Shown in pieces: positions 13,480 through 63,782 of a stretch of 64,000 nucleotides of DNA. A program made the translations under genes and the position numbers. Under the pieces are notes generated by a model, which worked only from the letters and a program-made list of their open reading frames with translations, searched no databases and was not told where the DNA came from. Source of the stretch: an uncultured Thiothrix sp. Its GTDB lineage: Bacteria; Pseudomonadota; Gammaproteobacteria; Thiotrichales; Thiotrichaceae. The stretch is from the NCBI GenBank assembly GCA_964293005.1, contig CAXYXW010000020.1, positions 3,766 to 67,765 of the forward strand. Reading direction: 5' to 3'. Every line of letters begins with the position of its first letter. The first letter of the stretch is position 1.

Positions 13480-13552
13480 GTGGGGTTTAAACTGGTTTTT
13501 TGAGGGTGTTTTCAGGAAAGGGGGTATATCACTACGCCCCTGCCATTAGGGT

Positions 13553-14128
13553 TCATGACTGTTCGTGTGATGGGGTGGTGTTGTTTTTCGGCCATCCCAT
13601 GCGGGTCAAGGTATTGTCGCCGCGCCCAACATGGTGGATCAGTGCAAAACCGGCATGCAGCACAATCAATACATAACCGATGGAGCCTGCCAGGGCATGG
13701 TAGTGTTTCAGGTCTTTGCCCAGTGCTTTGTCTTCCATGATCAGGGCAGGTAACTCCAGCCCGAAAAAGGATAAGGTCTTGCCTTCGGCACTCAACAGCA
13801 GCCAGCCCAGGATGGGCATGCCGATCATCAGCGCATACAGTATGTAATGCATCAGCGTGGACATAAGCCGTTGCCAGGCTGGCGGGCTAGGCTGGATGCG
13901 TGGTGTTGGGCTGGTGAGGCGCACGCCCAGGCGCACGATTGCCAAGATCAGCACCGCGAAGCCCAGCAGGTAATGCCATGTCTTCAGCATTTCGCGGGGG
14001 TCGCTGCCTTTGGGGAACAGTACCCGCAACTCAATGCAGGCATAAACGGCAATCAGCAGGATTAGCATGATCCAATGCAGGCCAATGGACAGTGAACCGT
14101 AGCGTTCTTGGTTGTTTCGCCAGCTCAT
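13553..14128 (-). CDS. Cytochrome b561 family protein (paralog of 8493..9041)
   Basis: About 65% identical by eye to the other b561 over the TM core (LSIGLHWIMLILLIAVYACIELRV...). Confidence 0.8.
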   Translation of the reverse strand: MSWRNNQERYGSLSIGLHWIMLILLIAVYACIELRVLFPKGSDPREMLKTWHYLLGFAVLILAIVRLGVRLTSPTPRIQPSPPAWQRLMSTLMHYILYALMIGMPILGWLLLSAEGKTLSFFGLELPALIMEDKALGKDLKHYHALAGSIGYVLIVLHAGFALIHHVGRGDNTLTRMGWPKNNTTPSHEQS

Positions 14129-14280
14129 CGGGGGTCTCCGCGTTATTCAGGTTAGGCAGGTTTTTGGGTACTGTATTTTTCAGTACCCATGCTGTCGTGC
14201 TTATCTGTTACAAAGCGCGGCATAAGCCGGATGGATGGCAAGATTAAGTGGTGTGCTGATGCAACATCTGTAACATTTGC

Positions 14281-15411
14281 TCAACACAATAACTGTCTGG
14301 CGGCTGCTTGCATGGGGTTTAGTAATGGCTCCAGCCGTTTGCGCATCACTGAACCAACCGCATCATTGCCCCCAAAAGCGGTATTGAGGCTGTCTTCGCC
14401 CAACTGTGCCAGCAACAGCATAGCCTTGAAATGTGGCAAATGCGCCTGATCCAGTGTTCCTGCCACCGTTTGCACAGCTTCTGCACCCACTTCGCCCTGG
14501 CAGAACTGCTCCGCCCTGGATTGGGCTTGCTGGATGTCACGCACACCGTGGGCTTCGGGAAACGGCAGATTGAAGCGTTTTTGCACCGCCTTGAACAGGG
14601 AAATCACCACCTCTTGGTCAACTGGTTTTTCCAACGCCAACAACAGGGCATGCAGCCATTTTTGCCCGGCAGCGGACAGCGCAAGGTGGAAAGCATGGGC
14701 AAACGGGTTATTGGCGGCTTGGGCGGCTGCCAAGCGTTGCCCGATGTCGGCATGGAAACGGTGGTCGGCCTGTTCCAGCGGGATGCAGGCGGCATCGGCA
14801 TGCAGGAAGCCAATATAAAACGGGTTTTTGCGTTTGGCGCGGCTCCAGAGCTTGTCCCGCTCCGGTGCTGAAACCAGCTCACCTTGCAGGCAAAGGCGCA
14901 CGCTATCCACCACATCCAGGGGGATTTCTTCAAACGGCAGGAATTCCAACAAATAGCGAGCCAATTCCTTGCCCAAGGCTCCTGCCACCACCTCCGGCTT
15001 TTCCAACAGGCGGCGGGCGGTGTCGGCAGACGGGTAAGCCCACCATGCCCGCCGCGCCAGTTCATGGCTGAGGTCGGGGGCGTGTACCACGGCAACCACT
15101 GCTTCCGGTTCGCCGAGCAACAGCATTTGCACCAGGTTATTGCGGGCATGTCCGGTACGTGTCCAGCGTTGCAGGAAAACCGGGTAGCCTCCGGGTGAAC
15201 CCGTTACTTTCAGTGATAGCAGTTCACGCACCCAGCGTAAGTACTGTTCATCACGCACGGTCGGGTTGAGCCGCACTTTGGCCTCACCTTTTTCGGTCAG
15301 GGCATGTACCGTCATGGTGGCCTCATTGATGCGGATGGCGTGCAGGGGTTGGGCTAACAGCACATTCAGGCGCAGGTTGTCTTCATTGGAGAGTTGCATG
15401 CCAGTTTCCAT
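14281..15411 (-). CDS. Conserved hypothetical protein (376 aa), no recognisable motif
   Basis: Long ORF with good codon structure, divergent from the SWIM-module operon. Confidence 0.4.
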   Translation of the reverse strand: METGMQLSNEDNLRLNVLLAQPLHAIRINEATMTVHALTEKGEAKVRLNPTVRDEQYLRWVRELLSLKVTGSPGGYPVFLQRWTRTGHARNNLVQMLLLGEPEAVVAVVHAPDLSHELARRAWWAYPSADTARRLLEKPEVVAGALGKELARYLLEFLPFEEIPLDVVDSVRLCLQGELVSAPERDKLWSRAKRKNPFYIGFLHADAACIPLEQADHRFHADIGQRLAAAQAANNPFAHAFHLALSAAGQKWLHALLLALEKPVDQEVVISLFKAVQKRFNLPFPEAHGVRDIQQAQSRAEQFCQGEVGAEAVQTVAGTLDQAHLPHFKAMLLLAQLGEDSLNTAFGGNDAVGSVMRKRLEPLLNPMQAAARQLLC

Positions 15412-15571
15412 CGTGGGGTCAAGCGCTGATTATCCGTGGGATGCAGCATGACTCCAATAGCCCCGGTGGACAAAAGGGCATGGATTCGCTGAATCGGGTT
15501 TGTAAATGCTGGAAAGTTTTCCTACATTTTTCTACACTGCACCCACATCATTTATAAAATAACGAAAACAC

Positions 15572-16915
15572 ATGACGACCCATCCTCATACCATCCGTTG
15601 GACGACCCAACATGTTGCTGCCCTCGCACCTGATGCGGCTTCCTTGAAAGCAGGGGAAAAACTCAGTCAGGCTCACCAATGGCTCACGCTCGGGCGTGCC
15701 GGTGAAATCCTGTGGGGAGAAATCAAAGGCAGCGGCAAAAATCCCTATCAGACCGCGATTGCCTTGGCAGAACCAGCTTTCAAATGTTCCTGCCCCAGCC
15801 GTAAATTTCCCTGTAAGCACGGATTGGGGCTGGCACTGGTGTTTGCCGCCAGTGCGGATGCCTTGGTGGAAGCTGAGCCACCAGCCTGGTTACAGGAGTG
15901 GCTGGACAAGCGTGGGCAACGCGCCCAAAAACAGGCGGAAAAAGCTGCTAGTGCTGCTGAGCCAGTGGACGAGGCCACGGTGCAGAAACGGGCGGCTGCC
16001 CAGCAAAAGCGTAACCATGCGCGTGATGAAAAAGTCAGTGCTGGGGTGACAGAGCTGCAACGCTGGCTATTTGACCTGATCCGTCAGGGCTTGGCACACG
16101 CTGATGATACCCAGTGGCAGCACATGGCAGCCCGCATGGTCGATGCCCAAGCCCCTGGTCTTGCCCGCCGTTTGCAAAATGCGGGCAACTTGCGTTATCA
16201 GGGTAGTGCCTGGCAGGAAAAACTTCTGCTGGAGATGGCTCGCCTTCATCTGTTACTGGAGGCATGGCAACGCCGCGACAGCCTGCCTGCCGCTGTGCAG
16301 GCGGATGTGTTGGCGCAGATCGGCTTTAACCTCAATAAAGAGGAGGTGCAGGCAACGGAGGGTATCCCAGACCTTTGGCAGGTTGTCGGGCAACGGCAGG
16401 AAGATGATGGGCAAATGCGCACGCAACGCACTTGGCTATATGGCTTGCACTCCCGGCGCTATGCCTTGCTGCTGGATTTTGCCGTGCAGAACCAGACGAT
16501 GGCATTGCGCCCCGGTATCGGCGGGCGCATCGAGGGGCTGTTGGCCTATTACCCATCGGCTGTCCCCTTGCGGGCATTAGCCCCTGTCCCCAGTGCCGTT
16601 CCTGTCAGTGGGGAGGACAACGGGCTGTTGTTTTTGCCACTAACCGACAACTTCAGCGCTTATGGACTTGCCTTGGCACAATGCCCGTGGTTGGGCATGT
16701 TTCCGTTTGCCATCGCTGATGTGGTTCCGGTGCAGCATGAGGGTGAATGGTTATTGGTCGATGCCCATCAACAGGCTATTCCGCTGCGCATCAGTGACGC
16801 GGAAGGATGGGGTCTGCTAGCGGAGAGTGGCGGGCATCCCTTGGCAGTGTTTGGTGAATGGGATGGCAGCATCCTGCATATCTGCGGCACATTCCAAGCC
16901 CAAGGGGGGCGATAG
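15572..16915 (+). CDS. SWIM zinc finger domain protein (first gene of the MoxR/VWA-associated module)
   Basis: SWIM-type CxC...CxH motif (FKCSCPSRKFPCKHG) near the N-terminus, followed by a long helical region. The stop lies 2 nt before the next start. Confidence 0.7.
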   Translation: MTTHPHTIRWTTQHVAALAPDAASLKAGEKLSQAHQWLTLGRAGEILWGEIKGSGKNPYQTAIALAEPAFKCSCPSRKFPCKHGLGLALVFAASADALVEAEPPAWLQEWLDKRGQRAQKQAEKAASAAEPVDEATVQKRAAAQQKRNHARDEKVSAGVTELQRWLFDLIRQGLAHADDTQWQHMAARMVDAQAPGLARRLQNAGNLRYQGSAWQEKLLLEMARLHLLLEAWQRRDSLPAAVQADVLAQIGFNLNKEEVQATEGIPDLWQVVGQRQEDDGQMRTQRTWLYGLHSRRYALLLDFAVQNQTMALRPGIGGRIEGLLAYYPSAVPLRALAPVPSAVPVSGEDNGLLFLPLTDNFSAYGLALAQCPWLGMFPFAIADVVPVQHEGEWLLVDAHQQAIPLRISDAEGWGLLAESGGHPLAVFGEWDGSILHICGTFQAQGGR

Positions 16916-16917
16916 TC

Positions 16918-18486
16918 ATGCAATTACAACCATTACCACAGGATTTGCTCAAAACTGCCCTGTTGGGAACCGAGCGCCAAACACAAGCTCCGCATGGCAA
17001 TAGCGCGTTGCAGCCTTATTTGGCGCAACTTTACCCGCAAGGGCAAGTACCTGCCGGTAGCAACCGTGAGTCTGCGTTTCTTGGGGCGGTTGCGTTGGCT
17101 TTGCACTACCGGGCGGCGGGTGCTGTACCCACCCCTTTTACCGGCACACTGCCACCCCCCGATCAGGGAGCTGATTTGCCCCTGATTCCCCCGGCTGCGG
17201 AACTGCATTTGCGGCGTATGTTGGTGGATAACAGCCTGCGCCCCTTGCTGGATGGCTGGTTGGAAACCGTTGCTACCCGGCGTTTACGGGTTCCGGCTGG
17301 TTTTATCCCGACCTTGCTGGAGCTGGCACAGCAAAGCCGCCGTATCCGCCCAGCGCTCAGTGTTGTGATTGGGCAGCGTGGGCATTGGCTCGCCAAGCAG
17401 CGGCAGGAGTGGCAGCGCTTGCTGGTGCTTGCGCCTGAGCCTGAGCAGGGGGCTGACTCGGCAATACCGCATCCTGCCATTTGGGACGAGGGCAATACCG
17501 ATCAGCGTAGCGAATATTTACGCCAGGTACGGGCTCAAGACCCCGTTGCCGCGCGTGGCTTATTGCAGGCGGTCTGGAAACAGGAGTCGGCAGCCGTCAG
17601 GCAGGATTTGTTGGCAACATTGACCGTGGGTTTAAGCCTTGCCGATGAAGCGTGGCTGGAAAGCTGTCTGGATGACCGCAGCAAAGGGGTACGCCAGTTG
17701 GCAGCCTCCTTATTGGGTGGCCTGACCGGTTCGGCATTCAGCCAGCGTGCCCAAGCCCGCTTGCTCGGATGGTTGGCGGTGCAGGGCAGTGGTGGCTTGC
17801 TGGGCAAATTGACTGGCAAGAAAACCTTGCAAGTGAACCTGCCCGAAGCGTGGGACAAGGCGTGGCTACGTGATGGCATCGAAGAGAAGCCACCGCAAGG
17901 GACAGGTGCAAAGGCATGGTGGTTGGAGCAAGCCCTGTCGTATGTGCCCCCGGCGGTCTGGACACAGCATTGGCAGGTGGAGCCTGCTGAGATGTTGGCC
18001 TATGCGACAAAAAGTGACTGGAAAGCGCCGTTGCTGTCCGGTTGGCAAGCGGCATTGGGGCGTTATCCCGATAGCCGCTGGGCGCAAGTCTGGTTATTGC
18101 AAACCGATGCCCGCGCTTCATCCTTATGGCAGGTATTAAGCGTGGCTGAGGCGGAGCAATCGGCCTGTGAGTTGCTGGGGCGTGCCAAAAAACTGGAGCA
18201 CTGTGAGTTTCTGACCCAGCTTGGGCATGAGTGGAGCCAGCCGTTTTCCATGCAGGTGCTGCTAGCCGTGGCATCGCATATCGACCGCAAGCAAACCTAT
18301 GTGTATAGCATCTATAGCCTGTTCCGTCATCTGGCGGTGCATCTGGATGCAAGCTGCGTGGACGCACTGGCTGACAGTTGGCAGCAGCCCTTGCAGGCAG
18401 AAGATCACCCCTTCCATTCCCTTTTGACTGAAACCTTATTCACGGTGCGTTTCCGGGCAGACATGCTCGCCGCACTCCATGTATGA
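16918..18486 (+). CDS. DUF5691-like protein (second gene of the module)
   Basis: Large Ala/Leu-rich helical protein immediately after the SWIM gene. Its position matches the conserved SWIM-DUFx-MoxR-DUFy-VWA neighbourhood. The DUF number is from memory. Confidence 0.5.
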   Translation: MQLQPLPQDLLKTALLGTERQTQAPHGNSALQPYLAQLYPQGQVPAGSNRESAFLGAVALALHYRAAGAVPTPFTGTLPPPDQGADLPLIPPAAELHLRRMLVDNSLRPLLDGWLETVATRRLRVPAGFIPTLLELAQQSRRIRPALSVVIGQRGHWLAKQRQEWQRLLVLAPEPEQGADSAIPHPAIWDEGNTDQRSEYLRQVRAQDPVAARGLLQAVWKQESAAVRQDLLATLTVGLSLADEAWLESCLDDRSKGVRQLAASLLGGLTGSAFSQRAQARLLGWLAVQGSGGLLGKLTGKKTLQVNLPEAWDKAWLRDGIEEKPPQGTGAKAWWLEQALSYVPPAVWTQHWQVEPAEMLAYATKSDWKAPLLSGWQAALGRYPDSRWAQVWLLQTDARASSLWQVLSVAEAEQSACELLGRAKKLEHCEFLTQLGHEWSQPFSMQVLLAVASHIDRKQTYVYSIYSLFRHLAVHLDASCVDALADSWQQPLQAEDHPFHSLLTETLFTVRFRADMLAALHV

Positions 18487-18526
18487 CAACATGACAATCT
18501 TCAAGGCATAACAACAAGGATCAACC

Positions 18527-19633
18527 ATGAGCGACACCAACAGCGGTACTATTATCCAGAACGTCCTGCGCCAGCACGCGGAAACGGAATTTGCCCACGA
18601 ACTGGCAGCCCTGCGTGAATATGATACTCAACCCCGCCCCCCACGCTGGCAATTGTCGCCGTGGGCAGTGCGTACTTATTTGCTGGGGGGGGAGCTGCCC
18701 GGTGGCATTGTCATTAGCCCCAAATACATCGGCAGTTCGCGCCTGATGGAGATTGCCATTTCCACGCTGGCAACCGACCGTGCCTTGCTGCTGTATGGTT
18801 TGCCCGGTACGGCAAAGTCGTGGGTTTCCGAACACTTGGCCGCCGCCATTTCGGGGCGCTCGACCCTGATTGTGCAGGGGACAGCAGGCACGGGCGAGGA
18901 AACCCTGCGTTATAACTGGAACTATGCGCAACTGATTGCCAAAGGCCCTTCTGAAGCGGCGTTGATTGAAAGCCCGGTGATGCATGCCATGCGTAATGGC
19001 CTGATTGCGCGGGTGGAGGAGCTGACCCGCATCCCGGCAGATGTGCAGGATACGCTGATCACCATCTTGTCGGAAAAGATGCTGCCAATCCCGGAGTTGA
19101 ATAGTGAATGTCAGGCACAAAAGGGCTTTAACCTGATTGCCACCGCCAATAACCGTGATAAGGGTGTCAATGAGCTGTCAAGTGCTTTGAAGCGGCGTTT
19201 TAATACGGTGATTTTACCCATCCCGGAAACGCTGGATGAGGAAGCCAGCATTGTCGATCGTCGGGTGGGCAGTTTGGGGCGTGCGCTTGAATTACCGGCA
19301 GAAAAACCGGCCTTGGCTGAAATCCGCCGAATTGTCACGATTTTCCGGGAGTTGCGCAGTGGTGTAACCGAAGATGGTAAAACCAAACTGAAAATCCCGA
19401 CCGGTACACTCAGCACTGCCGAAGCAATCTCCGTGGTGGGCAGCGGCATGGCTTTGGCAGCCCATTTCGGCGATGGCAGCCTGACGGCGCGTGATTTTGC
19501 GGCAGGTTTGATCGGGGCAGTGGTGAAGGATCCGGTGCAGGATAGTGTGGTCTGGAAAGAATACCTGGAAACTGTGGTTAAGGAACGTTCAGACTGGAAA
19601 GATTTATATCGTGCCTGCCGTGAGGTCATTTGA
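18527..19633 (+). CDS. MoxR-family AAA+ ATPase
   Basis: Walker A LLYGLPGTAKS, Walker B and sensor regions typical of MoxR/CbbQ-like ATPases. About 368 aa. Confidence 0.8.
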   Translation: MSDTNSGTIIQNVLRQHAETEFAHELAALREYDTQPRPPRWQLSPWAVRTYLLGGELPGGIVISPKYIGSSRLMEIAISTLATDRALLLYGLPGTAKSWVSEHLAAAISGRSTLIVQGTAGTGEETLRYNWNYAQLIAKGPSEAALIESPVMHAMRNGLIARVEELTRIPADVQDTLITILSEKMLPIPELNSECQAQKGFNLIATANNRDKGVNELSSALKRRFNTVILPIPETLDEEASIVDRRVGSLGRALELPAEKPALAEIRRIVTIFRELRSGVTEDGKTKLKIPTGTLSTAEAISVVGSGMALAAHFGDGSLTARDFAAGLIGAVVKDPVQDSVVWKEYLETVVKERSDWKDLYRACREVI

Positions 19634-19690
19634 GAATTTCTGAGTATTTAAACAGCGGATCGACTTGAATTGCCTATTTAATCGGCGCTG

Positions 19691-19724
19691 GGCAAGGCTG
19701 TACCTTTATCGGAAAAGCCTTGCC
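19691..19724 (+). terminator. Candidate intrinsic terminator/hairpin after the ATPase gene
   Basis: Perfect 9 bp stem GGCAAGGCT ... AGCCTTGCC with a 16 nt loop, followed by a T-rich tract. A TATAAT lies at about 19734. Confidence 0.3.
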
Positions 19725-19881
19725 ATTCATCTATAATATTTATACTGTTAGCTTATTCGCGCCCGTATTCACCCACAAACCATATAAAAAATTAATAAGG
19801 TGGCGTTTTGATAACGGGTCTTTTGCCGATTATTATGGCTTAAACAGCCTTTAACTCGGTTCCTGATTTCAGGTTGATCGG

Positions 19882-22260
19882 ATGAGCACACAAAATTATA
19901 CCAAGCTGAAATTATTACAAGCACTCGACGGCGCATTGCTGGTGGTGATGTTGTTGACGTTTGCAACACTGACATGGCTGAGCTTGAGTGATCTTTCAGC
20001 AAAAGCCCAGCATAACCTGTTGGAGTCGACTGCCGTGCTGGAGCAGGTGGAAAAAGACTTCATCGGGCAGCTCAGCAGGGAAGCGCATATTGATGAAAAC
20101 CGCAAAACCCTTGAGCAATTGAATGATGCTTTTTTCAAGCTGGCCTTTGATCCGGGCAGCATTGAGGAGAGCTTGCCACACCTGCGGACATTGGGTGAAA
20201 CATTCGATGCCCAGCGCCAAGTGTTGTTGCAGGAATGGCCGGGTAATTTCAGACCCTTGCTGCGTGACTCTTATGAGCTTGTCAGCGATAAGCTGGTTGC
20301 AAGCCTTGTGCAAAGCCAAACCTTAGCTTCGGATCAATGGACGGTATTTGCGGCGGATATTCGTACCCAGTTGTTGGCAACCCGTGAAGTGGTGGAGGAA
20401 ATCGACAGTATTGGTAATAGCCTCGGCGTATTGGTGAGTGACAGTATCCAGCTTTCGATCAATAGTGCCAACCGCAGTGTGGGGCAAATGAAAAGCCAGA
20501 TTGTGCAAATCCGCGAGAATGCGGTTTGGGCGATGCTGGGTTTGATGATCCTGCTGCTGTTGAGCCGGATTTATTTCTCCCACCGTTTCGGCATGCTGAC
20601 CCGCGATGCCCAGCAGGCACAGCAGCAGGCAGAAAATGCAGTCAAGACCAAGACCCGTTTCCTGGCGACCATGAGCCATGAAATCCGTACCCCGATGAAT
20701 GGGGTGATTGGTATGACCCGCTTACTGATGGATACCCCTTTGAACCAGCGGCAAGCTGATTTTGTCGAGAGTATCCGCCTGAGTGGTGAACATTTGTTGA
20801 CCGTGATTAATGATGTGCTGGATTTTTCACGGATTGAGGCAGGCAGGTTTGAACTCAAACAGGAGGCTTTTGAGCTGCGTTCCTGCGTTGAGGAAATCCT
20901 GAGCCTGCTGCATGCCAAGGCGGTGGAGAAAAACCTGGAGTTGACCTATGCAGTGCACACCGCCGTGCCACTCTTTATTGTCGGCGATCAGGTGCGTTTG
21001 CGGCAGATACTCACCAACCTGATTGGTAATGCCATCAAGTTTACGGAAAGTGGCGAAGTGACAGTATTCGTGAACCAGAAATCCGAGGCTAAATCAATGC
21101 GTGATCTGGTTGGCGTATCAGTTCATGAGCTGGAGTTTGAGATCCGTGATACCGGCCCTGGTATCCGTGCCAGCCGTTTGGGTAGTATTTTTGAGCAATT
21201 CAGCCGTGCCGATGAAACCTTGGTCAGGCAGCACGAAGGTACTGGGTTGGGCTTGAGCATTTCCCGCCATTTGGTGGGAATGATGGGCGGGTCTATCTGG
21301 GTGGAAAGCCGGGTTGGGGTTGGCAGCCGCTTTTTCTTTACCCTACAGGCACGGCAAGGAACAGGCGCATTGCAGGCTATCCATCAGGCCTCTATTCCCG
21401 CCATCAGTGGCAAACGCATCCTGGTTATTGAAAACAATCCTGCCAATAGCCAGGCCTTGCGTGATTATTGCTTGGGTTGGGGGGCAGAGGTTGAGCTTGC
21501 CAGTTCGGTTGCGGAAGCGGTCAGTTGGTTGGCATCCGGCAAAACGTATGGGTTAGCCTTGCTGGATGGGCATGTGGCAGAAACCGCTGCCATGGATTTT
21601 GCCCAGTATGTGCGCCAGCGTTCCCAACAGAAAGCATTGCCGCTGGTGCTGATGATCCAGCCCAATGATCGGCAGGAGGCGGTGCATGTCCTGTATAATG
21701 CCCTCCTGACCAAGCCGATGACCCGCAGCCGCTTGCTGGACAGTTTGCTGGCAGCTCTGGGTGGGCAAGCCGCCCTGCCTGAGTCGAAGGTGGTTGTGGA
21801 GGGCCAGAAATTAGGGGAGAGTTTGCCGCTGAGTGTTTTGCTGGTGGAGGATAACCGCATTAACCAGATCGTTGCCACGGCTATCCTCAAGCAGTTGGGC
21901 TATCAGGCTGACCTGGCGGAAAATGGCTTGGTCGCGGTCGCTGCCATGCACAAGAAAGCTTACGATGTTGTCTTTATGGATATGCAAATGCCAGAAATGG
22001 ATGGCGTGCAGGCCACCCGCTGTATCCGTGCCGAATTGCCGCCTGAGCGCCAGCCGGTAATTATTGCCATGACAGCGAATGCCCTAGAAAGTGACCGGCA
22101 GGAGTGTGTGGCAGCAGGCATGAATGATTACACCAGCAAGCCGGTTTTGCCGGAAACGGTTAAAGCCCTGCTGGAAAAGTGGGGGGCGGGTAGGGTTGCC
22201 CATACCCGTACAGCCCCGTCTGGCTCAGGTTTGCCTAACGCTTACCTGCCTGTTGCGTAA
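19882..22260 (+). CDS. Hybrid sensor histidine kinase / response regulator (periplasmic sensor, HisKA, HATPase_c, two receiver domains)
   Basis: Two TM helices flank a ~170 aa extracytoplasmic domain. H-box MSHEIRTPMNGVIGM, N/G boxes, then a degenerate REC (VIENN...LLDGH...LTKP) and a canonical REC (LLVEDNRINQ...VFMDMQMPEMDG...YTSKP). Confidence 0.85.
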   Translation: MSTQNYTKLKLLQALDGALLVVMLLTFATLTWLSLSDLSAKAQHNLLESTAVLEQVEKDFIGQLSREAHIDENRKTLEQLNDAFFKLAFDPGSIEESLPHLRTLGETFDAQRQVLLQEWPGNFRPLLRDSYELVSDKLVASLVQSQTLASDQWTVFAADIRTQLLATREVVEEIDSIGNSLGVLVSDSIQLSINSANRSVGQMKSQIVQIRENAVWAMLGLMILLLLSRIYFSHRFGMLTRDAQQAQQQAENAVKTKTRFLATMSHEIRTPMNGVIGMTRLLMDTPLNQRQADFVESIRLSGEHLLTVINDVLDFSRIEAGRFELKQEAFELRSCVEEILSLLHAKAVEKNLELTYAVHTAVPLFIVGDQVRLRQILTNLIGNAIKFTESGEVTVFVNQKSEAKSMRDLVGVSVHELEFEIRDTGPGIRASRLGSIFEQFSRADETLVRQHEGTGLGLSISRHLVGMMGGSIWVESRVGVGSRFFFTLQARQGTGALQAIHQASIPAISGKRILVIENNPANSQALRDYCLGWGAEVELASSVAEAVSWLASGKTYGLALLDGHVAETAAMDFAQYVRQRSQQKALPLVLMIQPNDRQEAVHVLYNALLTKPMTRSRLLDSLLAALGGQAALPESKVVVEGQKLGESLPLSVLLVEDNRINQIVATAILKQLGYQADLAENGLVAVAAMHKKAYDVVFMDMQMPEMDGVQATRCIRAELPPERQPVIIAMTANALESDRQECVAAGMNDYTSKPVLPETVKALLEKWGAGRVAHTRTAPSGSGLPNAYLPVA

Positions 22261-23407
22261 CAATTCCAGCCTTGGCAGCCCAGATACCCAAATCCTGTTT
22301 GCTTAAGGCATTCGCCATCAGCTCCGGGAACTGGTCGGGGGTACAAGCAAACGTCGGGATGCCCAAGGCGGCAAATTGTGCCGCCATGTCATGGTCATAA
22401 AACGGCGCACCTTCATCGCTTAAAGCCAGCAATGAAATCACCTGTACGCCAGAGGCCACCAGACTTGCCACCCGTTTGAGCATTTCCTTGCCATTTCCCC
22501 CCTCGTACAAATCGCTGATGAGGATAAAAACCGTGTCTTCCGGGCGTGAAATCAGTCCTTGGCAATAGCCGACTGCCCGGTTGATGTCGGTCCCCCCGCC
22601 CAGTTGCAAGCCAAACAGCAAATCCACCGGGTCATCATGCAACTCAGCGGTGAGGTCAACAATCGAGGTATCGAATACCACCATGCGTGTACTTAACGCC
22701 GGGATGGAGGCCATCACTGCCGCAAAAATGCTGGAATAAACGACCGATGGGGCCATCGAGCCACTTTGGTCAATGCACAGTACCACCTCTTTCAGGGCAG
22801 AGCGCTTGCGTCCGTAGCCGATACGGATTTCCGGCACAATCGCATTGTATTCCGGCAAGTAGTTCTTGATATTGGCGCGGATGGTACGGTTCCAGTCGAT
22901 TTCTTGCAGACGCGGACGGCGGTTGCGGATGGAGCGGTTGAGTGCGCCTTTGACGGCCTGTTGCATCGGTTGTTGCAAACGGCGCAGCAATTCATCAACC
23001 ACCTTGGCAACCACCAGCCGCGCAGTTGACTTGGTTTTGCCAGGAATCACATTTTTCAGGGAAATCAGCGTGGCAACCAGGTGGATGTCGGCTTCTACCG
23101 CTTGCAGCACTTCGGGTTCCAGCAACAATTGGCGTAAACCCAGCCGCTCAATCGCATCTTGCTGGATCACACGCACGACCGAAGAAGGGAAATATTGGCG
23201 GATGTCGCCCAGCCAGCGGGTGACATTGGGCGCAGAAGCGTTGAGGCTACCCCGTTTGCCCCCGCCATTGTTTGCCCCATCGCCATACACAGCAGACAGG
23301 CAATTGTCCATGCCCTGCTCTAAGCCACTGAGTGAGCAGCCAATGCCATCGGCATCCCCACCACCGAGGATCAAGCGCCAGCGTTTTTGGTGTTGTTCGT
23401 TGTTCAT
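22235..23407 (-). CDS. VWA domain protein (MIDAS motif DxSGS)
   Basis: VLCIDQSGSM is a MIDAS-like motif. Overlaps the upstream DUF5682-like gene by 4 nt (ATGA). Confidence 0.75.
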   Translation of the reverse strand: MNNEQHQKRWRLILGGGDADGIGCSLSGLEQGMDNCLSAVYGDGANNGGGKRGSLNASAPNVTRWLGDIRQYFPSSVVRVIQQDAIERLGLRQLLLEPEVLQAVEADIHLVATLISLKNVIPGKTKSTARLVVAKVVDELLRRLQQPMQQAVKGALNRSIRNRRPRLQEIDWNRTIRANIKNYLPEYNAIVPEIRIGYGRKRSALKEVVLCIDQSGSMAPSVVYSSIFAAVMASIPALSTRMVVFDTSIVDLTAELHDDPVDLLFGLQLGGGTDINRAVGYCQGLISRPEDTVFILISDLYEGGNGKEMLKRVASLVASGVQVISLLALSDEGAPFYDHDMAAQFAALGIPTFACTPDQFPELMANALSKQDLGIWAAKAGIVTQQAGKR

Positions 23408-25710
23408 GCTGCTAACCCCAATAGCATCGCCAGCAATGGCAAGGCCGTTTGTGCCCGTTCCTCATCTACATCAGTATTGGCTGCCACTACCACTGGCAAG
23501 GCTGCTTGCCCTTGTTTGACCCGCTCACCCATTTGCCGCCGTTCGGGGGCTTCAAAGGTGGAGAAGGTACGGCGTAGAACGGGCAACAGCGCTTGGAAAG
23601 CTTCATCCGTGAGGCTGGCTACCCAGCGGTCGATCAGGTTCCAGAGGGTTTCATCATAGATCAGCAGTTGCCCGCTGCCACGCAGGAAACCATCTACCCA
23701 AGCGGCGGCATGGGCAGGCTCATTGGCAGCGGATAAGGCCAGGCCGAAACGACGGGCGCTGGCTTCCCCGTCCAGCAGACCCGATTGCAGCAGCAGGCGG
23801 CAACAACGCCCTGCCAACAGCGGATGCAGGCCGTACTGATCCAGCAGGGTTTCCAGGGTGCGTGTCCATTGCCCGCTGAAATCGGCATCATCCAGCAGGT
23901 GGATGGCTTCCTGCACCGCCTGGATTTGCGTGAACATGGCTTCAGCCGCCTCTTCATTCAGCGCACTGCACGCATTCGGCAAGCCAATACAGATGCGTGT
24001 AACCATGCCATTGACCACATGACTGACTTGTCCGGCAGCGGTTTTACGCACATCGCCATAACGCAGCAATTGCGCCAGCTCAGGCAATGCCCGCATCAGG
24101 TGCAGGATGTCACTGCTGATCGCCGCTTCGGTTTGCAGGCGTTGCATCAGTATATGAACGGCGCTGGGCAGATTGGCATAAAGTGCGGCATGCGCCATCT
24201 GGGCAAGCTGCTCCAGGGCGGTGGTATCGCGTGCTTGGCTGGTCAGTTTGTGGCTGGCAGCGGTTTCCAGCGTATTGCCCCAAAAACCTGCCTCAATCAG
24301 GCGGATGGCAAATTCCGGTTGCCAGAGGATACGCCAGTTTTCCTTGAATGTGCCTTTGCCACTGGCACGCTTGCCACCCTTGCCCCAATCAATGCTGAGG
24401 ATTTGCAGGCGGCGCAGCAGGTAACTGCGTTCGAGGTCGGTCGGTTTGCGCAAGTCCAGCAGCAATTCAGCATCGCTGGCACTGGGTTTGAGGCGCAGGC
24501 GTTTTTGTTCCTGAGCCAAATCTTGCTGGAGTGGAGTTTGTGGGGTTTCATCCGGCACATTGCCCAAGGATTCACCGATCAACAAACGCCGGTGCAGGAG
24601 CTGCATCGGGGTGGCATCGCCAAACAGCATGACGCTTTGTACAGATTCATTCAGCTCTGCCAATCCGGGTAAGGGCCGCCCGCGCATCGCTGCCAAGGTT
24701 TCTGCCAGCCGCACGGTTTCGATAATGTGCGCCGATGAGATGTCGATGCCTTGGGTGCGGAAGGTGTGCGCCACTTGGGTTAGCCAGCGTGAAGTCAGGG
24801 TACTGGCAGCATGCCCCAGTGGGAATTTCAGGTTGTGGTTCCAGATATGCGCATACCATCCGGGCGCATCGACACCTGCCCCGTAGCCGCTGGCTTGGCT
24901 CAGGCGGTCATACGTCCAGGGAACCCAGGTGGCAGTTGTCTTGAGTTTGGGCAGCCCTTTGAGCAGGGCATCATCGGCTTTGGCGACTGGCATGTCCTGC
25001 AAGGCCGGGACGTGCCATGCACCGCAGACCACCGCAATGGTTTGGAAGCCGTCCTTCTGGGCTTGGCGGATAGTTTTACGCATGTGGGCTTCACGCCATT
25101 GCTCATGCATCTGTTCGGCTGGGTCGCGGGGGCTATCGGTCTGATCGGCATCGACGGCAGTCCGCAAGGCGGTCATGGCTTCGGCAATCGCCTGAAATAA
25201 TTCCGCAGAATCTTGCCGCTCCTCAACCATGTGTTCCCACCAACGTTCACTATCAGCGTAACCGGCAGCCTCTGCCAGTAAAGCCAGTGGGTCGTGGCGG
25301 ATGTTGCGCTTGTCACTGGCATCATTTAGCGGAGCTTGTCCGCTTTCGGCCTCTGGCGCTGGGGTGGCGGGTGTTGCTTCCAATGCCTTGTCGTGGGCAA
25401 AGCGGATGGCAACCGGCAAATCCATAAAACGTACCGGAATCCCCCGTTGCAGGGCATGGCGAATCGCTTGCCATTCGGGGGAAAAGTCCGCGAAGGGGTA
25501 GTAAACGGCACGTTGTGGTTCATCAGGGGCATATAACAGCAAGGCAACCGGTGCTTGCATTTGGGCGTGCAATACCAAGGGCAGGATGTTATCGGCTTCG
25601 GGTGGGCCTTCGACCAGAATGCAGTCCGGCTGCAAGTTGTCCAATGCGTGGGCAAGGCTGCGGGCAGAGCCGGGGCCGTGGTGACGGATACCGAACAGGT
25701 GGTATGGCAT
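23404..25710 (-). CDS. DUF5682-like large protein (module partner of MoxR and VWA)
   Basis: About 770 aa helical protein, translationally coupled to the VWA gene. Probable start MPYHLFGIRHHGPGS. The DUF number is from memory. Confidence 0.5.
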   Translation of the reverse strand: MPYHLFGIRHHGPGSARSLAHALDNLQPDCILVEGPPEADNILPLVLHAQMQAPVALLLYAPDEPQRAVYYPFADFSPEWQAIRHALQRGIPVRFMDLPVAIRFAHDKALEATPATPAPEAESGQAPLNDASDKRNIRHDPLALLAEAAGYADSERWWEHMVEERQDSAELFQAIAEAMTALRTAVDADQTDSPRDPAEQMHEQWREAHMRKTIRQAQKDGFQTIAVVCGAWHVPALQDMPVAKADDALLKGLPKLKTTATWVPWTYDRLSQASGYGAGVDAPGWYAHIWNHNLKFPLGHAASTLTSRWLTQVAHTFRTQGIDISSAHIIETVRLAETLAAMRGRPLPGLAELNESVQSVMLFGDATPMQLLHRRLLIGESLGNVPDETPQTPLQQDLAQEQKRLRLKPSASDAELLLDLRKPTDLERSYLLRRLQILSIDWGKGGKRASGKGTFKENWRILWQPEFAIRLIEAGFWGNTLETAASHKLTSQARDTTALEQLAQMAHAALYANLPSAVHILMQRLQTEAAISSDILHLMRALPELAQLLRYGDVRKTAAGQVSHVVNGMVTRICIGLPNACSALNEEAAEAMFTQIQAVQEAIHLLDDADFSGQWTRTLETLLDQYGLHPLLAGRCCRLLLQSGLLDGEASARRFGLALSAANEPAHAAAWVDGFLRGSGQLLIYDETLWNLIDRWVASLTDEAFQALLPVLRRTFSTFEAPERRQMGERVKQGQAALPVVVAANTDVDEERAQTALPLLAMLLGLAA

Positions 25711-25913
25711 ACAGGTTGTCCTTTTGGAGCGCATATTGTTGGTTATTGCTGGGGATTGTAGCAGGATTTTTACAGCTTATCCCCCATTCACCCCCGCCTA
25801 TCTTCCATTTTCCACACTTTATGAGCTGATCCCATGCCCCGTTACATTTGCGTCCTATGCTCAGGGAAGTAGAAGAACCTATTTATCCACCAAAAAACGC
25901 ATAGGTGAACGGC

Positions 25914-28138: not shown

Positions 28139-28831
28139 TTAAACTTCTTGCATGATCCGCACCACCCGCGCATCCAGACACGAGCGCAGGAAGGCATTCA
28201 TCGCGGTTTCATCGCCCGACGTATAAAACGCCAGCATCAAGGTGTTGAATTCCAGTTGGCGTTTGGCGGGCAGGTTGATGGCGGGGTAGCCATGCTGGAG
28301 CAAATGCCCATTCATCATGAAACGCCCCATGCGCTTGTTCACGTCGTAGAAAAACTGGCAACGTGCCATCGTCAGAAACAGATGGATGGCTTGGTCGTAA
28401 ATGTCGTCGATGTGGGCAAGGTCGGCAACCATTGCCTGGAAACGGGCAGGCAATTCGGCAACCGGCGGTGGCATATAATCCGTTCCGGCGATGAGTACGC
28501 CACCTGTGCGGAAACAGCCCCATTCCAGTGCTTCCTCTTTGCCTGCGACGGCGTGGAGTGCGCAGGCTGTTGCGGCGGAAACGCTGAATTCACCGCGCTC
28601 AAGCCAGCCAAACAATAACCGCCATGCGTTGCCTTGATTGACCGTGATTTGCTGGTCGGACAGTTTGTGTCCACCGACGGTGATGCCATCCAGCAGGGTT
28701 TGGACTTCCGGCAGGGTCATGTTGATGCCTTCCAGATTGACGGCATCGCAAACGAATTCGCTGAGTTGGCGTTTTGCCAGCATCAGGGCTTTGGCGGGGT
28801 TGGGGGGGATTTGCCAGTGGGTGTCTTGCAT
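28139..28831 (-). CDS. Fic/Doc-fold protein with a degenerate active-site motif
   Basis: QFFYDVNKRMGRFMMN aligns to the Fic motif HPFxDGNGRxxRLLxN. His->Gln and Gly->Val/Lys substitutions are seen directly. Confidence 0.6.
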   Translation of the reverse strand: MQDTHWQIPPNPAKALMLAKRQLSEFVCDAVNLEGINMTLPEVQTLLDGITVGGHKLSDQQITVNQGNAWRLLFGWLERGEFSVSAATACALHAVAGKEEALEWGCFRTGGVLIAGTDYMPPPVAELPARFQAMVADLAHIDDIYDQAIHLFLTMARCQFFYDVNKRMGRFMMNGHLLQHGYPAINLPAKRQLEFNTLMLAFYTSGDETAMNAFLRSCLDARVVRIMQEV

Positions 28832-28897
28832 GAAGCGATTCCGTTATTGCGTTGGGTAACAGGATTTTACCCCAACTCACCCAGCCGACAACGGCTA

Positions 28898-29407
28898 TTA
28901 CTTCATCCGCGCTCTTGCTACATCTTTCCAAAGTCTTGCACCTCTTGGTGCATGGGCATCTACACAAACTGAGGGAAAGTCCATAACTTCGCTCCGAACC
29001 TCCCCCCTCCCCAACCCTCCCCCCGCAAGGGGTGGAGGGGGCAAGAGGTGTTGGGATTGTTGGTGCAAGGCGTGACGAATTTGTTGTAAAACGGCTTCCT
29101 GATTGTTCAGGAGTTCATCATTCCAGAAACGCAGCAGTCTGAATTGTTGTTGCTGCATCCAGTTGTCGCGCTCACGGTCATACGCTTGTTGGTGGCGGTG
29201 TGGGTTGCCGTCCAGCTCAATTACCAACCGCGCATCCAGACAAACAAAATCAACGATATAGCGCCCCAATGGGGCTTGATGGCGGAAACGGTAGCCATCC
29301 AATTGGCGTTTCCTCAACAGCGCCCATAACGTCTGCTCTGGTATTGTCATGTTCTTACGCAGATTGCGGGCAAGGTCACGGTGAGTTTTGTTGTATTGCC
29401 TTTCCAT
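28898..29407 (-). CDS. DUF559 (Vsr-like very-short-patch-repair endonuclease fold) protein
   Basis: MERQYNKTHRDLARNLRKNMTIPEQTLWALLRKRQLDGYRFRHQAPLGRYIVDFVCLDARLVIELDG is typical DUF559. The C-terminal tail is encoded by read-through into the left inverted repeat. Confidence 0.65.
   Translation of the reverse strand: MERQYNKTHRDLARNLRKNMTIPEQTLWALLRKRQLDGYRFRHQAPLGRYIVDFVCLDARLVIELDGNPHRHQQAYDRERDNWMQQQQFRLLRFWNDELLNNQEAVLQQIRHALHQQSQHLLPPPPLAGGGLGRGEVRSEVMDFPSVCVDAHAPRGARLWKDVARARMK
28958..29045. repeat. Left arm of the inverted repeat
   Basis: See the mobile_element entry. Confidence 0.8.
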
Positions 29408-29463
29408 CGTTCGAGTGTCGGGGATACCATCCAACCCCGCAACAAATGCCGATAACCAGAACA

Positions 29464-29552
29464 TCTTACCCCCTCCACCCCTTGCGGGGGGAGGGTTGGG
29501 GAGGGGGGAGGTTCGGAGCGAAGTTATGGATTTTCTCTCAGTTTGTGTAGAT
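29464..29552. repeat. Right arm of the inverted repeat
   Basis: See the mobile_element entry. Confidence 0.8.
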
Positions 29553-29604
29553 ACTCATGCCGTTTGATGGCAGATTTCATGTAAGATATTGAAAGGGTAA
29601 ACAC

Positions 29605-29982
29605 ATGAGCAACCGCATCCTAACCATCAAAGTCGGTACAAGTATCCAGCCCTCGCTGGCACTCGCCCAGCAGATGCTGGAACAGCTAGAAACCGGCGAA
29701 GAGCCTACCCCCTATTTCGGCGTAGGCTTCAAAAATGTCAGCCAGATGCTCGGTGTTTTCACGCCCAAACGCTGGGATTTGTTGGCAACCTTACGCGAAC
29801 ATGGCGCGATGAGTGTTGCCGAACTCGCCCGCACCCTGCAACGCGACTACAAAAACGTCCACAACGACGTGGAGCGCCTGATGGAATGGCTGGCTATCGA
29901 GCGCGATGCACAGGGCAGGGTGTTTACGCCCTACGCGGAAATTGTGGTGGATGTGCATTTGCCGCAACAAAAAGCGGCGTAG
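29605..29982 (+). CDS. Small winged-helix/HTH DNA-binding protein
   Basis: About 125 aa. HTH-like segment MSVAELARTLQRDYKNVHNDVERL. Confidence 0.45.
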   Translation: MSNRILTIKVGTSIQPSLALAQQMLEQLETGEEPTPYFGVGFKNVSQMLGVFTPKRWDLLATLREHGAMSVAELARTLQRDYKNVHNDVERLMEWLAIERDAQGRVFTPYAEIVVDVHLPQQKAA

Positions 29983-32259: not shown

Positions 32260-32351
32260 GGGGCTTTAATCCAGCGGTGTGTCCAATGCTGGCGGGGCGA
32301 CGAGCAGTGGTATAAACTCAAGGTGAATCAATACCCTTGAGGAGGGGATTC

Positions 32352-33305
32352 ATGAAACCTTATCGCCATTCCTGCTGGATTGCTCTGCTGGTCTCAAGCG
32401 CTTGCTGCTTACTGCTGCATCCGGTGCATGCTGAGGTTGTGGCTGCCAAACTACAGCAATCCCCAGCCTCTTTTGCCCAGTTTGGTGGGGCTTATACGCA
32501 GGAAGACAGCCACGAGATGTGGTTGCCGTTGCGGGCAAAGTACTTTGCTGACCGCCCCATTATTGAAGGCATCGGGAGCCGTGTGACCTTGACCACCCCG
32601 GAGCGGGCAGAAAATGATGCGGCTGTCCCGGTCAGCATCCAGTTGCAAACCGACCCATCCACCACCGTTCAGCCAGTCAGTCAGGGCAATGCTGCACCTG
32701 CGTCTGGGGTGGGGCTGGCAGATAAGGATCCATTCAAAAAGGTCTACCTGATTGTGGATGTCAACCCTGCACCAGTCGGTGGTATTTTCACCTTGGCAGA
32801 CAAGCGGGCAATGACTGAAATCACCACCCATGTGCGGGTCAATGGTTACACCTACATCCGTGTTGTGGCAGAAACGGCGGCTGGCAAGCTGTATATGGAC
32901 AAGCGTTGGGTCAAGTCAACGGGGGCAGGTTGTTCTGCCCCGCCCAATATTGACCAGGAGGAACATAAAAAACGTCTGGGCAAAATGCGCTTTACCTTGC
33001 CGGACAATACGGCGGTGCTGGAGCCGCGTGTTTTGCGCCTGATGATTTCCCACCCCAACAATACCGGCATGCAGCGCGACCAGCTTTCTACCCTGTTTAT
33101 CCCTGAGCATTACGTCAAGCAGATCAAGGTGTCTTTCAACCAGCAACCGCTGCTGGAGGCGGAAACCAGCTTTACCCTGAGCGAAAACCCTGGGTTTGGC
33201 TTCAATTTCGCCCCGGATGAGTCGGGTATCCTGCGGGCAGACATGACCGACAGTGAGAACAAGACCTTCAGTACCGAAACCTCCATTCACGGGGTCGAGC
33301 GTTAG
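32352..33305 (+). CDS. Fused SoxY-like / SoxZ-like sulfur-carrier-family protein (secreted)
   Basis: Signal peptide. The N-terminal half is SoxY-like (AENDAAVPVSIQ). The C-terminal half strongly resembles SoxZ (ISHPNNTGMQRDQLSTLFIPEHYVKQIKVSFNQQPLLEAETSFTLSENPGFGFNF). No C-terminal GGCGG carrier motif. Confidence 0.55.
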   Translation: MKPYRHSCWIALLVSSACCLLLHPVHAEVVAAKLQQSPASFAQFGGAYTQEDSHEMWLPLRAKYFADRPIIEGIGSRVTLTTPERAENDAAVPVSIQLQTDPSTTVQPVSQGNAAPASGVGLADKDPFKKVYLIVDVNPAPVGGIFTLADKRAMTEITTHVRVNGYTYIRVVAETAAGKLYMDKRWVKSTGAGCSAPPNIDQEEHKKRLGKMRFTLPDNTAVLEPRVLRLMISHPNNTGMQRDQLSTLFIPEHYVKQIKVSFNQQPLLEAETSFTLSENPGFGFNFAPDESGILRADMTDSENKTFSTETSIHGVER

Positions 33306-36576: not shown

Positions 36577-37185
36577 ATGGCAATTAACCACCCCATTTCC
36601 CGTCGTCAATGGTTGCAGTATAGCGCAGCCGGTACACTGGGTTTACTGTTGCCTGTTTTTCCGATCCAGGCGGGGGCGCTGGATACCGGGGCAATCCTGC
36701 GCCTGCATCCGGTGCGTTATATCGGCGGTTTGATTTTCAATACCGTCGTGGCGGTTATCACCAAATTGGCGGAGGAGGAAATGGTGCAGGCGCTGCAAAC
36801 CGGCAAGCCCTTACCACCCTACCAGCGGCAAACCCGTTGCCAAGTGGCTTGTGATGACAGCCAGTTCCACCCTCCGCATTATAAGGCAGCGGTGGTTTTG
36901 TCAGGTTTGGCGGGTTATCAGGCTCACCGCCAGCGCCGTCTGGAGCTGCTGCTGCAAGACCCGGCACAGGTGGCACGTTTCAAGGATATGCTGCAATACC
37001 TGCGGGATGAGCGCCTGCGGGTGCGCCTGGTCGGGATGGAATACCCGCAATTGGTGGGCAAGGACATGATCCCGGATGATTTTTTCACTTTGGATCACTA
37101 CGGGTTGACCCCACACAAGGCCGAGCATGTGCAGGCCTTGGTGGAGCTGACGGGGACAGGGGCTTTTACGGATTGGAGCGTGTGA
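36577..37185 (+). CDS. Tat-signal hypothetical protein
   Basis: Twin-arginine motif SRRQWLQYSAAGTLGLLL. Its stop overlaps the start of the next gene (TGATG). Confidence 0.45.
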   Translation: MAINHPISRRQWLQYSAAGTLGLLLPVFPIQAGALDTGAILRLHPVRYIGGLIFNTVVAVITKLAEEEMVQALQTGKPLPPYQRQTRCQVACDDSQFHPPHYKAAVVLSGLAGYQAHRQRRLELLLQDPAQVARFKDMLQYLRDERLRVRLVGMEYPQLVGKDMIPDDFFTLDHYGLTPHKAEHVQALVELTGTGAFTDWSV

Positions 37186-56516: not shown

Positions 56517-56587
56517 AGTTACCAGTTGGAGTCGAACCAACGACAGCTTGATCAAGTCAAGTGCTCTACCGATTGAGCTATGGTAAG
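56517..56587 (-). tRNA. tRNA-like sequence 2 (canonical D- and T-arms, atypical anticodon arm)
   Basis: Reverse complement reads CTTACCA-TA-GCTC-AATCGGTA-GAGC-A-CTTGA-CTTGA-TCAAG-CTGTC-GTTGG-TTCGACT-CCAAC-TGGTAAC-T. The T-loop TTCGA is present. The anticodon loop appears to be 5 nt. Confidence 0.4.
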
Positions 56588-56588
56588 G

Positions 56589-56656
56589 AGCAGCTAATGG
56601 GGGTCGAACCCATGACCACCGCTTGTGCGGTTGCTCTACCACTGAGCTATAGCCGC
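56589..56656 (-). tRNA. tRNA-like sequence 1 (canonical D- and T-arms, atypical anticodon arm)
   Basis: Reverse complement reads GCGGCTA-TA-GCTC-AGTGGTA-GAGC-A-ACCGC-ACAA-GCGGT-GGTC-ATGGG-TTCGACC-CCCAT-TAGCTGC-T. It is 68 nt, about 3-5 nt short of a standard tRNA. Separated from tRNA-like 2 by 1 nt. Confidence 0.4.
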
Positions 56657-60998: not shown

Positions 60999-61016
60999 CT
61001 AAAGCATACTTGGCAC
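60999..61016 (+). promoter_or_regulatory. Sigma-54-type (-24/-12) promoter upstream of rtcB
   Basis: cTTGGCACagccaTTGCAat has GG and GC elements with the canonical spacing (TGGCAC-N5-TTGCA). It lies about 55 nt upstream of the rtcB ATG. Confidence 0.5.
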
Positions 61017-61072
61017 AGCCATTGCAATACTTTAAGCACAATACAACGGCAATGAGCCAAGGAGAACCTACC

Positions 61073-62305: not shown

Positions 62306-62334
62306 CGTTCCAGCGCGATTTCAAAGAGTTTATC

Positions 62335-62367
62335 GAGATACTCAACAATCACTCGGTTGAGTATCTT
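62335..62367. other. Strong hairpin at the GC/AT composition boundary after rtcB
   Basis: GAGATACTCAAC - 9 nt loop - GTTGAGTATCTT. No clear U-tract. Confidence 0.35.
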
Positions 62368-62434
62368 GCCAAGTTCCGATAGATTACATACTCTGTTTTG
62401 AACGAAATATCTTCGCGGGGCTTGATTTTAACGC

Positions 62435-63142: not shown

Positions 63143-63144
63143 AC

Positions 63145-63771: not shown

Positions 63772-63782
63772 GCCTGCAATAA

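Follow-up and report, generated by a model that had tools for sequence, protein, structure and literature searches.

Positions 15572-25734 of a 64,000-nucleotide (nt) stretch of contig CAXYXW010000020.1 from an uncultured Thiothrix sp. (the whole stretch is called the window below) encode a SWIM zinc-finger protein, a DUF5691 protein, a MoxR-type AAA+ ATPase, a CoxE-type VWA protein and a DUF5682 protein. The locus raises the question of whether these genes belong to one biological system, whether such a system has been seen before and what it might do. In a preliminary description the five genes were taken for a conserved neighbourhood with no experimentally assigned function, for the best candidate in the window for an undescribed system and for a probable sensing or conflict machinery. 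The first statement holds: the five families are a co-conserved, co-evolving unit, and the literature searched contained no paper mentioning DUF5682 or DUF5691. The second does not, since the ATPase falls in the YehL subfamily of MoxR proteins (PMC3893208) and RefSeq already labels Escherichia coli yehM as a DUF5682 family protein. The gene set is known and named, and the window copy is an intact, rearranged member of the YehL-type MoxR-VWA module. The third statement is weighed further on.

The SWIM, DUF5691, AAA_5/MoxR, DUF5682 and VWA assignments were all confirmed by Pfam (Table 1), and the motifs quoted at the outset (CxC...CxH, GLPGTAKS and DQSGS) are present and conserved among orthologues. 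A pattern scan of one genome per species gave 80 loci with DUF5682 relatives at 45-78% identity, belonging to Gammaproteobacteria, Cyanobacteria, Melainabacteria, Chloroflexota, Acidobacteriota, Bacteroidota (Chitinophaga), Verrucomicrobiota, Planctomycetota, Deinococcota, Methylomirabilota and others. The open reading frames (ORFs) of these loci were searched with the window proteins, and 61 loci had sufficient flank. The order SWIM-DUF5691-AAA_5-DUF5682-VWA on one strand, referred to as canonical, was found in 50 of the 61, in eight or more phyla. In the 41 loci with all five genes the pairwise distances of the five proteins were correlated (Spearman 0.63-0.86) and the protein lengths were near constant, with the VWA protein kept between 377 and 424 amino acids (aa). 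The claim of a conserved neighbourhood is borne out by this order and these correlations. The DUF5682 family comprises at least 8000 clusters at 90% identity, and the DUF5691 family 4187 representatives at 50% clustering.

The relation to E. coli was established through the K-12 genes yehL, yehM, yehP and yehQ, which encode AAA_5, DUF5682, VWA_CoxE and SWIM proteins, respectively. The window ATPase is 40% identical to YehL over 359 residues, that is over its full length (E=2e-74), the DUF5682 protein is 26% identical to YehM and the VWA protein 35% identical to YehP. Both clusters thus contain a homologous ATPase, DUF5682 protein and CoxE-type VWA protein together with a SWIM-domain protein, but the E. 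coli gene order is ATPase-DUF5682-VWA-SWIM, and YehQ has only the zinc-finger motif in common with the window SWIM protein. E. coli lacks DUF5691 and has instead, upstream, the DUF4132 protein YehI and the WGR protein YehF. By hhalign, neither the DUF5691 nor the SWIM protein showed homology to YehQ, YehI or DUF4132, and DUF5691 showed none to DUF5682; a megablast search of the region against E. coli gave no match. The subtype found in the window is far more conserved across phyla than the E. coli variant. Of 5426 complete E. coli genomes, 5353 (98.7%) carry the yehLMPQ genes (L005, 14597-20945), in single copy and almost always on the chromosome. Seven MoxR subfamilies have been named, and the one typified by YehL has no known function (PMC3893208); yehL and yehM are repressed by H-NS (PMC3686432), and no paper in the literature searched gives a function for yehLMPQ. 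The YehL-subfamily MoxR ATPase, the CoxE-type VWA/MIDAS (metal-ion-dependent adhesion site) adaptor and the DUF5682 protein are regarded as the core of the module, and this trio is homologous to yehL-yehP-yehM.

The layout of the genes in the window departs from the canonical one. The orthologues of the five proteins in Thiothrix lacustris, T. nivea, Leptolyngbya, Chitinophaga and others, at 45-80% identity for DUF5682, are encoded in the colinear form, an operon characterised by short or overlapping junctions, whereas in the window the DUF5682-VWA part is inverted and a kinase gene lies between the halves. The interval contains six substantial ORFs, namely the five module genes and a histidine kinase gene. 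The five families had been recognized correctly; the kinase had been overlooked, and the genes form a convergent split instead of a single operon. SWIM-DUF5691-MoxR occupy the plus strand and DUF5682-VWA, 2.6 kb from the ATPase gene, the minus strand. Nor is the MoxR-VWA pair fused to the SWIM and scaffold proteins, as had been suggested: all five are separate ORFs, each of full length and with every motif intact. The start codon of VWA and the stop codon of DUF5682 overlap (ATGA), and the kinase and VWA genes share 26 nt at their 3' ends. The likely start of DUF5691 is 16918, 2 nt past the SWIM stop codon, and the likely true start of DUF5682 is 25710, giving the N-terminus MPYHLFGIRHH; both starts match the gene calls on an independent, 99%-identical metagenome contig (L004). 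The same six-gene layout with the same flanks occurs on that contig, so the arrangement is not an assembly artefact. Since the Thiothrix relatives (T. lacustris, T. nivea and Candidatus T. moscowensis) all have the colinear form, the window order is derived, by inversion of DUF5682-VWA. Inverted repeats were looked for at the rearrangement junctions and none were found. For all the proteins the nearest relatives belong to Thiothrix, Thiolinea and Thiofilum, which places the source of the window in the Thiotrichaceae. An NCBIfam search of the interval proteins gave nothing specific beyond Pfam, the exact-sequence look-up of the window DUF5682 protein and the Rfam scan of the region gave no match, and promoter and terminator scans of the region were at chance level overall.

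A conserved sixth gene was sought among the loci and none was found, save for exceptions in five Chitinophaga loci and in T. nivea plus one other locus. In five Chitinophaga-group loci (L082, positions 13529-16456, and L072, L076, L077 and L083) a gene for a DUF4132/HEAT protein of about 975 aa starts about 20 nt after the VWA gene. YehI of E. coli, encoded upstream of yehL, is of the same family. DUF4132 is therefore an occasional accessory and looks like an optional sixth component common to both module subtypes. In T. nivea (L088, 17501-21326) an SNF2-family helicase (DUF3670 plus SNF2) and a second, unrelated SWIM protein are encoded on the same strand after the module. One Ca. T. moscowensis metagenome-assembled genome (L006, 16382-20551) has a similar helicase gene about 3 kb downstream; none was seen in the other loci.

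The two proteins that form the motor in the model proposed below carry the signature motifs of their families. Besides the Walker A motif GLPGTAKS at residues 91-98, the ATPase has a VEE motif resembling Walker B and an RRF motif, and these motifs are conserved; among solved structures, the Midasin AAA domains and NorQ are closest to it in sequence. In the VWA protein the motif D213-Q-S-G-S217, together with the later GGGTD and SDL, makes up a complete MIDAS site, and all three motifs are conserved across 62 sequences. Such pairs have a general mechanism in which the VWA protein captures a peptide and ATP drives its release in an altered conformation (PMC7159879).

The SWIM protein has an N-terminal zinc finger of the form CxCx6CxH, of which C72, C74, C81 and H83 are invariant across 24 orthologues. 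The finger is followed by a long helical bundle (approximately residues 105-260) and two C-terminal beta-rich subdomains (265-447). In structure the protein comes closest to ZSWIM8, which serves a Cullin-RING ubiquitin ligase as substrate receptor, but the sequence identity to the eukaryotic protein is only 10%, the C-terminal beta-domains differ, and ubiquitin machinery is lacking here. DUF5691 is the fastest-diverging component of the module. Among the best 150 matches two proteins, P0375 (984 aa) and P0412 (970 aa), contain an entire SWIM protein with an entire DUF5691 protein after it. These fusions appear to give Rosetta-stone support for a SWIM/DUF5691 pair.

The DUF5682 protein had been described as a helical partner of about 770 aa. 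Its C-terminal part, of approximately 500 residues, is indeed a helical repeat, but residues 1-265 form an alpha/beta domain, so the protein is not simply helical. The fold of the N-terminal domain matches a TraB family protein and ChaN, with which it has a parallel beta-sheet core in common. A series of motifs, each placed straight after a beta-strand, runs through this domain: G-I-R-H10-H11, LVE34GP, SPE79W, D97LP, R206-E207-A-x-M and C-G-A-W-H233. E34, E79, D97, R206, E207 and H233 are invariant in 79 sequences including YehM; H10/H11 are near-invariant in the same set and invariant in an N-terminal alignment of 27 sequences including YehM. The motif pattern parallels that of E. coli YbaP, a TraB/GumN protein. 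TIKI enzymes have an active site of two histidines and two glutamates plus a basic residue (PMC6254334), and the His/Glu/Arg set of DUF5682 appears to fit this pattern. A TIKI-like hydrolase domain at the N-terminus of DUF5682 is moderately supported by these features; the protein would differ from the TIKI/TraB/PrgY/GumN/ChaN/erythromycin-esterase superfamily in having no significant sequence or profile similarity to it, in the fusion of the domain to the helical repeat and in its place inside a MoxR-VWA module.

The best explanation of these data, which is given about even weight for and against, is that the window holds a rearranged copy of a widespread, self-contained cytoplasmic machine of five proteins, in which an ATP-driven MoxR-VWA motor would control a TIKI-like hydrolase/scaffold protein, with SWIM and DUF5691 as a recognition pair. 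Family membership, motifs, synteny, co-evolution and the rearrangement are established, whereas complex formation, the hydrolase activity and the way in which the five proteins share the work are inferred. The intact MIDAS site of the VWA protein would hold an acidic residue or a peptide of a partner or substrate, and the MoxR ring would remodel the VWA-bound complex using ATP. This remodelling could gate, load or release the TIKI/TraB-like domain at the N-terminus of DUF5682, a putative hydrolase and most likely a peptidase or esterase, with the helical C-terminal half acting as a scaffold. SWIM and DUF5691 would form a joint recognition or regulatory arm, a reading based on their co-evolution, their occasional fusion and their being the most variable members of the module. 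The very high conservation of the module and its invariant architecture speak for a conserved target inside the cell and not for a rapidly evolving invader. More tentatively, the YehL-type module, which occurs in thousands of bacteria of many phyla, could represent an unrecognized class of ATP-gated intracellular hydrolase machine, in which a MoxR-VWA motor would be combined with a TIKI/TraB-like peptidase (DUF5682) and a SWIM/DUF5691 receptor would select the substrate, loosely like ZSWIM8, which in eukaryotes picks out proteins for destruction. Its target would then be highly conserved, or the machine would be an unusually conserved immune sensor.

Several results weigh against the explanation of a self-contained five-protein hydrolase machine. 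Strict co-location is not universal: in 11 of the 61 loci only part of the module was found within 10 kb, as DUF5682 alone, as DUF5682-VWA, as AAA_5-DUF5682-VWA or, in a single locus (L029), as SWIM to DUF5682 without VWA. The Pfam model TraB_PrgY_gumN (PF01963) is not matched by DUF5682 even at E<=10, and profile searches of PDB sequences with DUF5682 gave no match. Alignment of DUF5682 with a YbaP alignment by hhalign pairs H10 with the histidine of GxxH and E34 with the glutamate of VEAD, but at a probability of only 0.6%. A Foldseek comparison of DUF5682 with the PDB gave no significant match, only helical-repeat noise. The TIKI/TraB assignment is one of fold and motif pattern only. The SWIM::DUF5691 fusions could be read-through, lost-stop, sequencing or gene-calling artefacts, since the two genes lie only 2-3 nt apart. 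No experiment on any module member was found in the literature searched.

The most prominent alternative is the one favoured at the outset, a nucleoside triphosphate-dependent system against phages or mobile elements, in which SWIM and DUF5691 would sense the invader, the MoxR-VWA pair would act as a threshold switch and DUF5682 as the peptidase effector, in parallel to the MoxR-vWA-VMAP ternary systems. On balance this reading is unsupported, and it is considered unlikely. The ternary conflict systems (VMAP, iSTAND and FtsH types; Kaur, Burroughs, Iyer and Aravind 2020, PMC7159879) resemble the module in adding dedicated components to a MoxR-VWA pair, and in both cases the VWA protein has a CoxE-like N-terminal region and the third component is a putative peptidase with a helical region, rapidly diverging in the ternary systems (PMC7159879). 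DUF5691 and the SWIM protein, with mean identities of 28% and 42%, also diverge much faster than the ATPase (75%). Further points in favour are cross-phylum identities as high as those within a class, which suggest horizontal transfer, four different chromosomal positions of the module in four Thiothrix-group genomes, an Mks/Wadjet-like cluster adjoining it in Ca. T. moscowensis, the H-NS silencing of yehL and yehM (PMC3686432) and, more tentatively, the filamentous or multicellular habit of many hosts.

These features have to be set against the constancy of the module. Conflict systems are marked by effector displacement and architectural diversity (PMC7159879), and the invariant lengths and architectures of the five proteins, with no displaced effector, are the opposite of these hallmarks and disfavour the conflict reading. 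Where the ternary systems have a VMAP, iSTAND or FtsH component, variable effector domains on the VWA protein and diversified architectures, the module has DUF5682, DUF5691 and SWIM, and a VWA protein that has no C-terminal effector domain and stays within the length range given above. The words SWIM, YehL, TraB, DUF4132 and WGR do not occur in the text of PMC7159879, and the Pfam bpMoxR model scored 19.8 bits, below its cut-off of 27. Across phyla the ATPase keeps 62-100% identity, which is unusual for arms-race genes, and the presence of yehLMPQ in nearly all complete E. coli genomes contrasts with defence systems, which are typically accessory. None of the five proteins matched a PADLOC-DB 2.0 model, apart from a chance-level IetA match of the ATPase.

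Residence in defence islands, which had been raised as a point to check, was not confirmed by a survey of 96 immediate neighbours (the first gene on each side of 48 canonical loci): two matched PADLOC, both of them Ser/Thr kinases, no Pfam family occurred in more than three, and the neighbours were heterogeneous and mostly metabolic. Ser/Thr kinases lie within 10 kb of the module in 15 loci, a rate judged compatible with chance in kinase-rich phyla. The flanks in the window are of a housekeeping kind: a sulfatase-family protein, cytochromes, an ankyrin-repeat protein, a racemase, dienelactone hydrolase, BirA and CoaX, and further SoxYZ, an ArgB-like protein, PlsX, FabH, DsbD and RtcB. In T. 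lacustris the module lies between genes of aromatic amino-acid and histidine biosynthesis and genes for a DEAD helicase, fabH and plsX.

Equally doubtful is a role in metal or cofactor insertion, of the CoxD/CoxE, NorQ/NorD, CbbQ/CbbO or chelatase type, in which DUF5682 would be a metal- or tetrapyrrole-handling subunit and the client would be encoded elsewhere, as with RavA-ViaA. The CoxD/CoxE, NorQ/NorD, CbbQ/CbbO and RavA/ViaA chaperones have, like the module, an AAA_5/MoxR ATPase with a MIDAS-bearing VWA partner; the VWA protein of the window is in the Pfam CoxE family, and its AAA_5 ATPase has NorQ among the nearest solved structures. Mg- and Co-chelatases combine an AAA+ protein, a VWA protein and a large subunit, a layout resembling the module with its subunit of about 770 aa. 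The N-terminus of DUF5682 matches ChaN, a haem-binding protein, and the many invariant His, Glu, Asp and Cys residues of DUF5682 could bind metal; the His/Glu/Arg pattern, however, fits a hydrolytic TIKI site equally well. The E. coli yeh cluster adjoins DUF4132 genes, which may be counted for this role, and one of them near the cluster, the pseudogene yehH, is presumably the gene also called molR, "molybdate metabolism regulator". Mutations in yehM arose in copper-evolved E. coli (PMC12409786), a very weak hint. Systems of the CoxDE/NorQD/CbbQO type are encoded beside their client, while no candidate client enzyme recurred either in the survey of 96 neighbours or in the 10 kb around the module in 75 loci, and the window flanks have none. 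This disfavours a cofactor-insertion chaperone of the CoxDE/NorQD type that serves an enzyme encoded next to it, in agreement with the earlier view that the module is not a housekeeping chaperone; a client encoded elsewhere would escape such a survey. The module moreover has three extra conserved proteins, two of which, SWIM and DUF5691, are dedicated components without counterpart in known maturation systems.

The kinase between the two halves of the module is membrane-bound, with two transmembrane segments, HisKA and HATPase_c domains, a degenerate receiver and a second receiver; a promoter-like site lies upstream of its gene, the promoter scans being at chance level overall. T. lacustris, T. 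nivea and most of the 80 loci have no histidine kinase at this position. Ca. T. moscowensis likewise has a hybrid kinase gene convergent with its VWA gene (L001, 13614-15464), but that kinase has another architecture and only 33% identity to the one in the window. An inversion of a three-gene block DUF5682-VWA-kinase in common with Ca. T. moscowensis was considered and dropped, given this low identity and the lack of the kinase in T. lacustris and T. nivea. The interposed kinase is probably a neighbour and not a component of the module. That the module is decaying or being rewired in this genome, its halves uncoupled and part of its function controlled or replaced by the inserted kinase, is suggested by the split convergent layout, the overlapping 3' ends and the convergent kinase of Ca. 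T. moscowensis, but is very improbable given five full-length ORFs with intact motifs, the same arrangement kept at 99% identity in an independent sample, the dissimilarity of the two kinases and the fact that T. lacustris and T. nivea have no kinase there.

Table 1. Position of the module genes, their motifs and other features in the window, with the mean pairwise identity of the module proteins over 41 loci
Feature	Positions	Strand	Evidence or remark	Mean identity
SWIM-domain protein, 447 aa	15572-16915	+	Pfam SWIM, 20.7 bits (cut-off 19.6)	42%
Zinc finger CxCx6CxH, CSCPSRKFPCKH	15785-15820			
DUF5691 protein, 522 aa	16918-18486 (alternative start 16858)	+	Pfam DUF5691, E=5e-129, full-length model coverage	28%
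MoxR-type AAA+ ATPase, YehL subfamily, 368 aa	18527-19633	+	Pfam AAA_5, E=3e-36	75%
Walker A motif of the ATPase	18797-18820			
Promoter-like site	19808-19836		Upstream of the kinase gene	
Hybrid sensor histidine kinase/response regulator, 792 aa	19882-22260	+	Pfam and NCBIfam: HisKA, HATPase_c, two Response_reg	
CoxE-type VWA protein, YehP-like, 390 aa	22235-23407	-	Pfam VWA_CoxE, E=2e-50	66%
DQSGS of the MIDAS site	22757-22771			
DUF5682 protein, YehM-like, 768 aa	23404-25710 (ORF to 25734)	-	Pfam DUF5682, E=2.4e-280	52%
N-terminal alpha/beta domain of DUF5682	24916-25710			
376-aa protein	14281-15411	-	No Pfam match	
Ankyrin-repeat protein, 185 aa	25905-26462	+		
Fic/DOC protein	28139-28831	-		
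DUF559 endonuclease-like protein	28898-29464	-		
HVO_A0114/MarR-type helix-turn-helix protein	29605-29982	+		
SoxY and SoxZ domains in one ORF	32337-33305	+		
627-aa protein with leucine-rich repeats	37173-39056	+	C-terminal FGE-sulfatase (formylglycine-generating-enzyme-like) domain	
Two adjacent tRNA genes	56517-56656	-		
RtcB RNA ligase gene	61010-62305			
Segment of low G+C	62001-64000		G+C 0.42	
Exo_endo_phos family ORF	62435-63142		Just after the RtcB gene	

Some further features of the window were recorded in passing (Table 1). The 376-aa protein and the ankyrin-repeat protein are encoded divergently from the two outer ends of the module, and both are also present on contig L004. A cluster of Fic/DOC, DUF559 and helix-turn-helix genes (28139-29982) lies 2.5-4 kb from the module and is the only toxin-like or mobile-element-like content near it. 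The FGE-sulfatase domain found in the 627-aa protein belongs to a type that serves as a diversified ligand-binding module in some bacterial systems. A spurious 532-aa ORF in the mechanical ORF list spans both tRNA genes. The G+C content elsewhere in the window is about 0.55, and the segment of low G+C at its end may be foreign DNA. The combined SoxY-SoxZ ORF is consistent with a sulfur-oxidising host of the Thiothrix kind.

The value of the window itself is modest: it provides an intact rearranged copy and indicates that the module tolerates a split into a three-gene and a two-gene unit. The wider interest lies in the family. YehL is one of seven MoxR subfamilies and has been without an assigned function since it was named, while the cross-phylum identity of the window-type ATPase is judged comparable to that of core informational proteins. 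The module is abundant across many phyla and its E. coli variant is near-universal in that species, so that the hypotheses put forward here on its function would be directly testable there.

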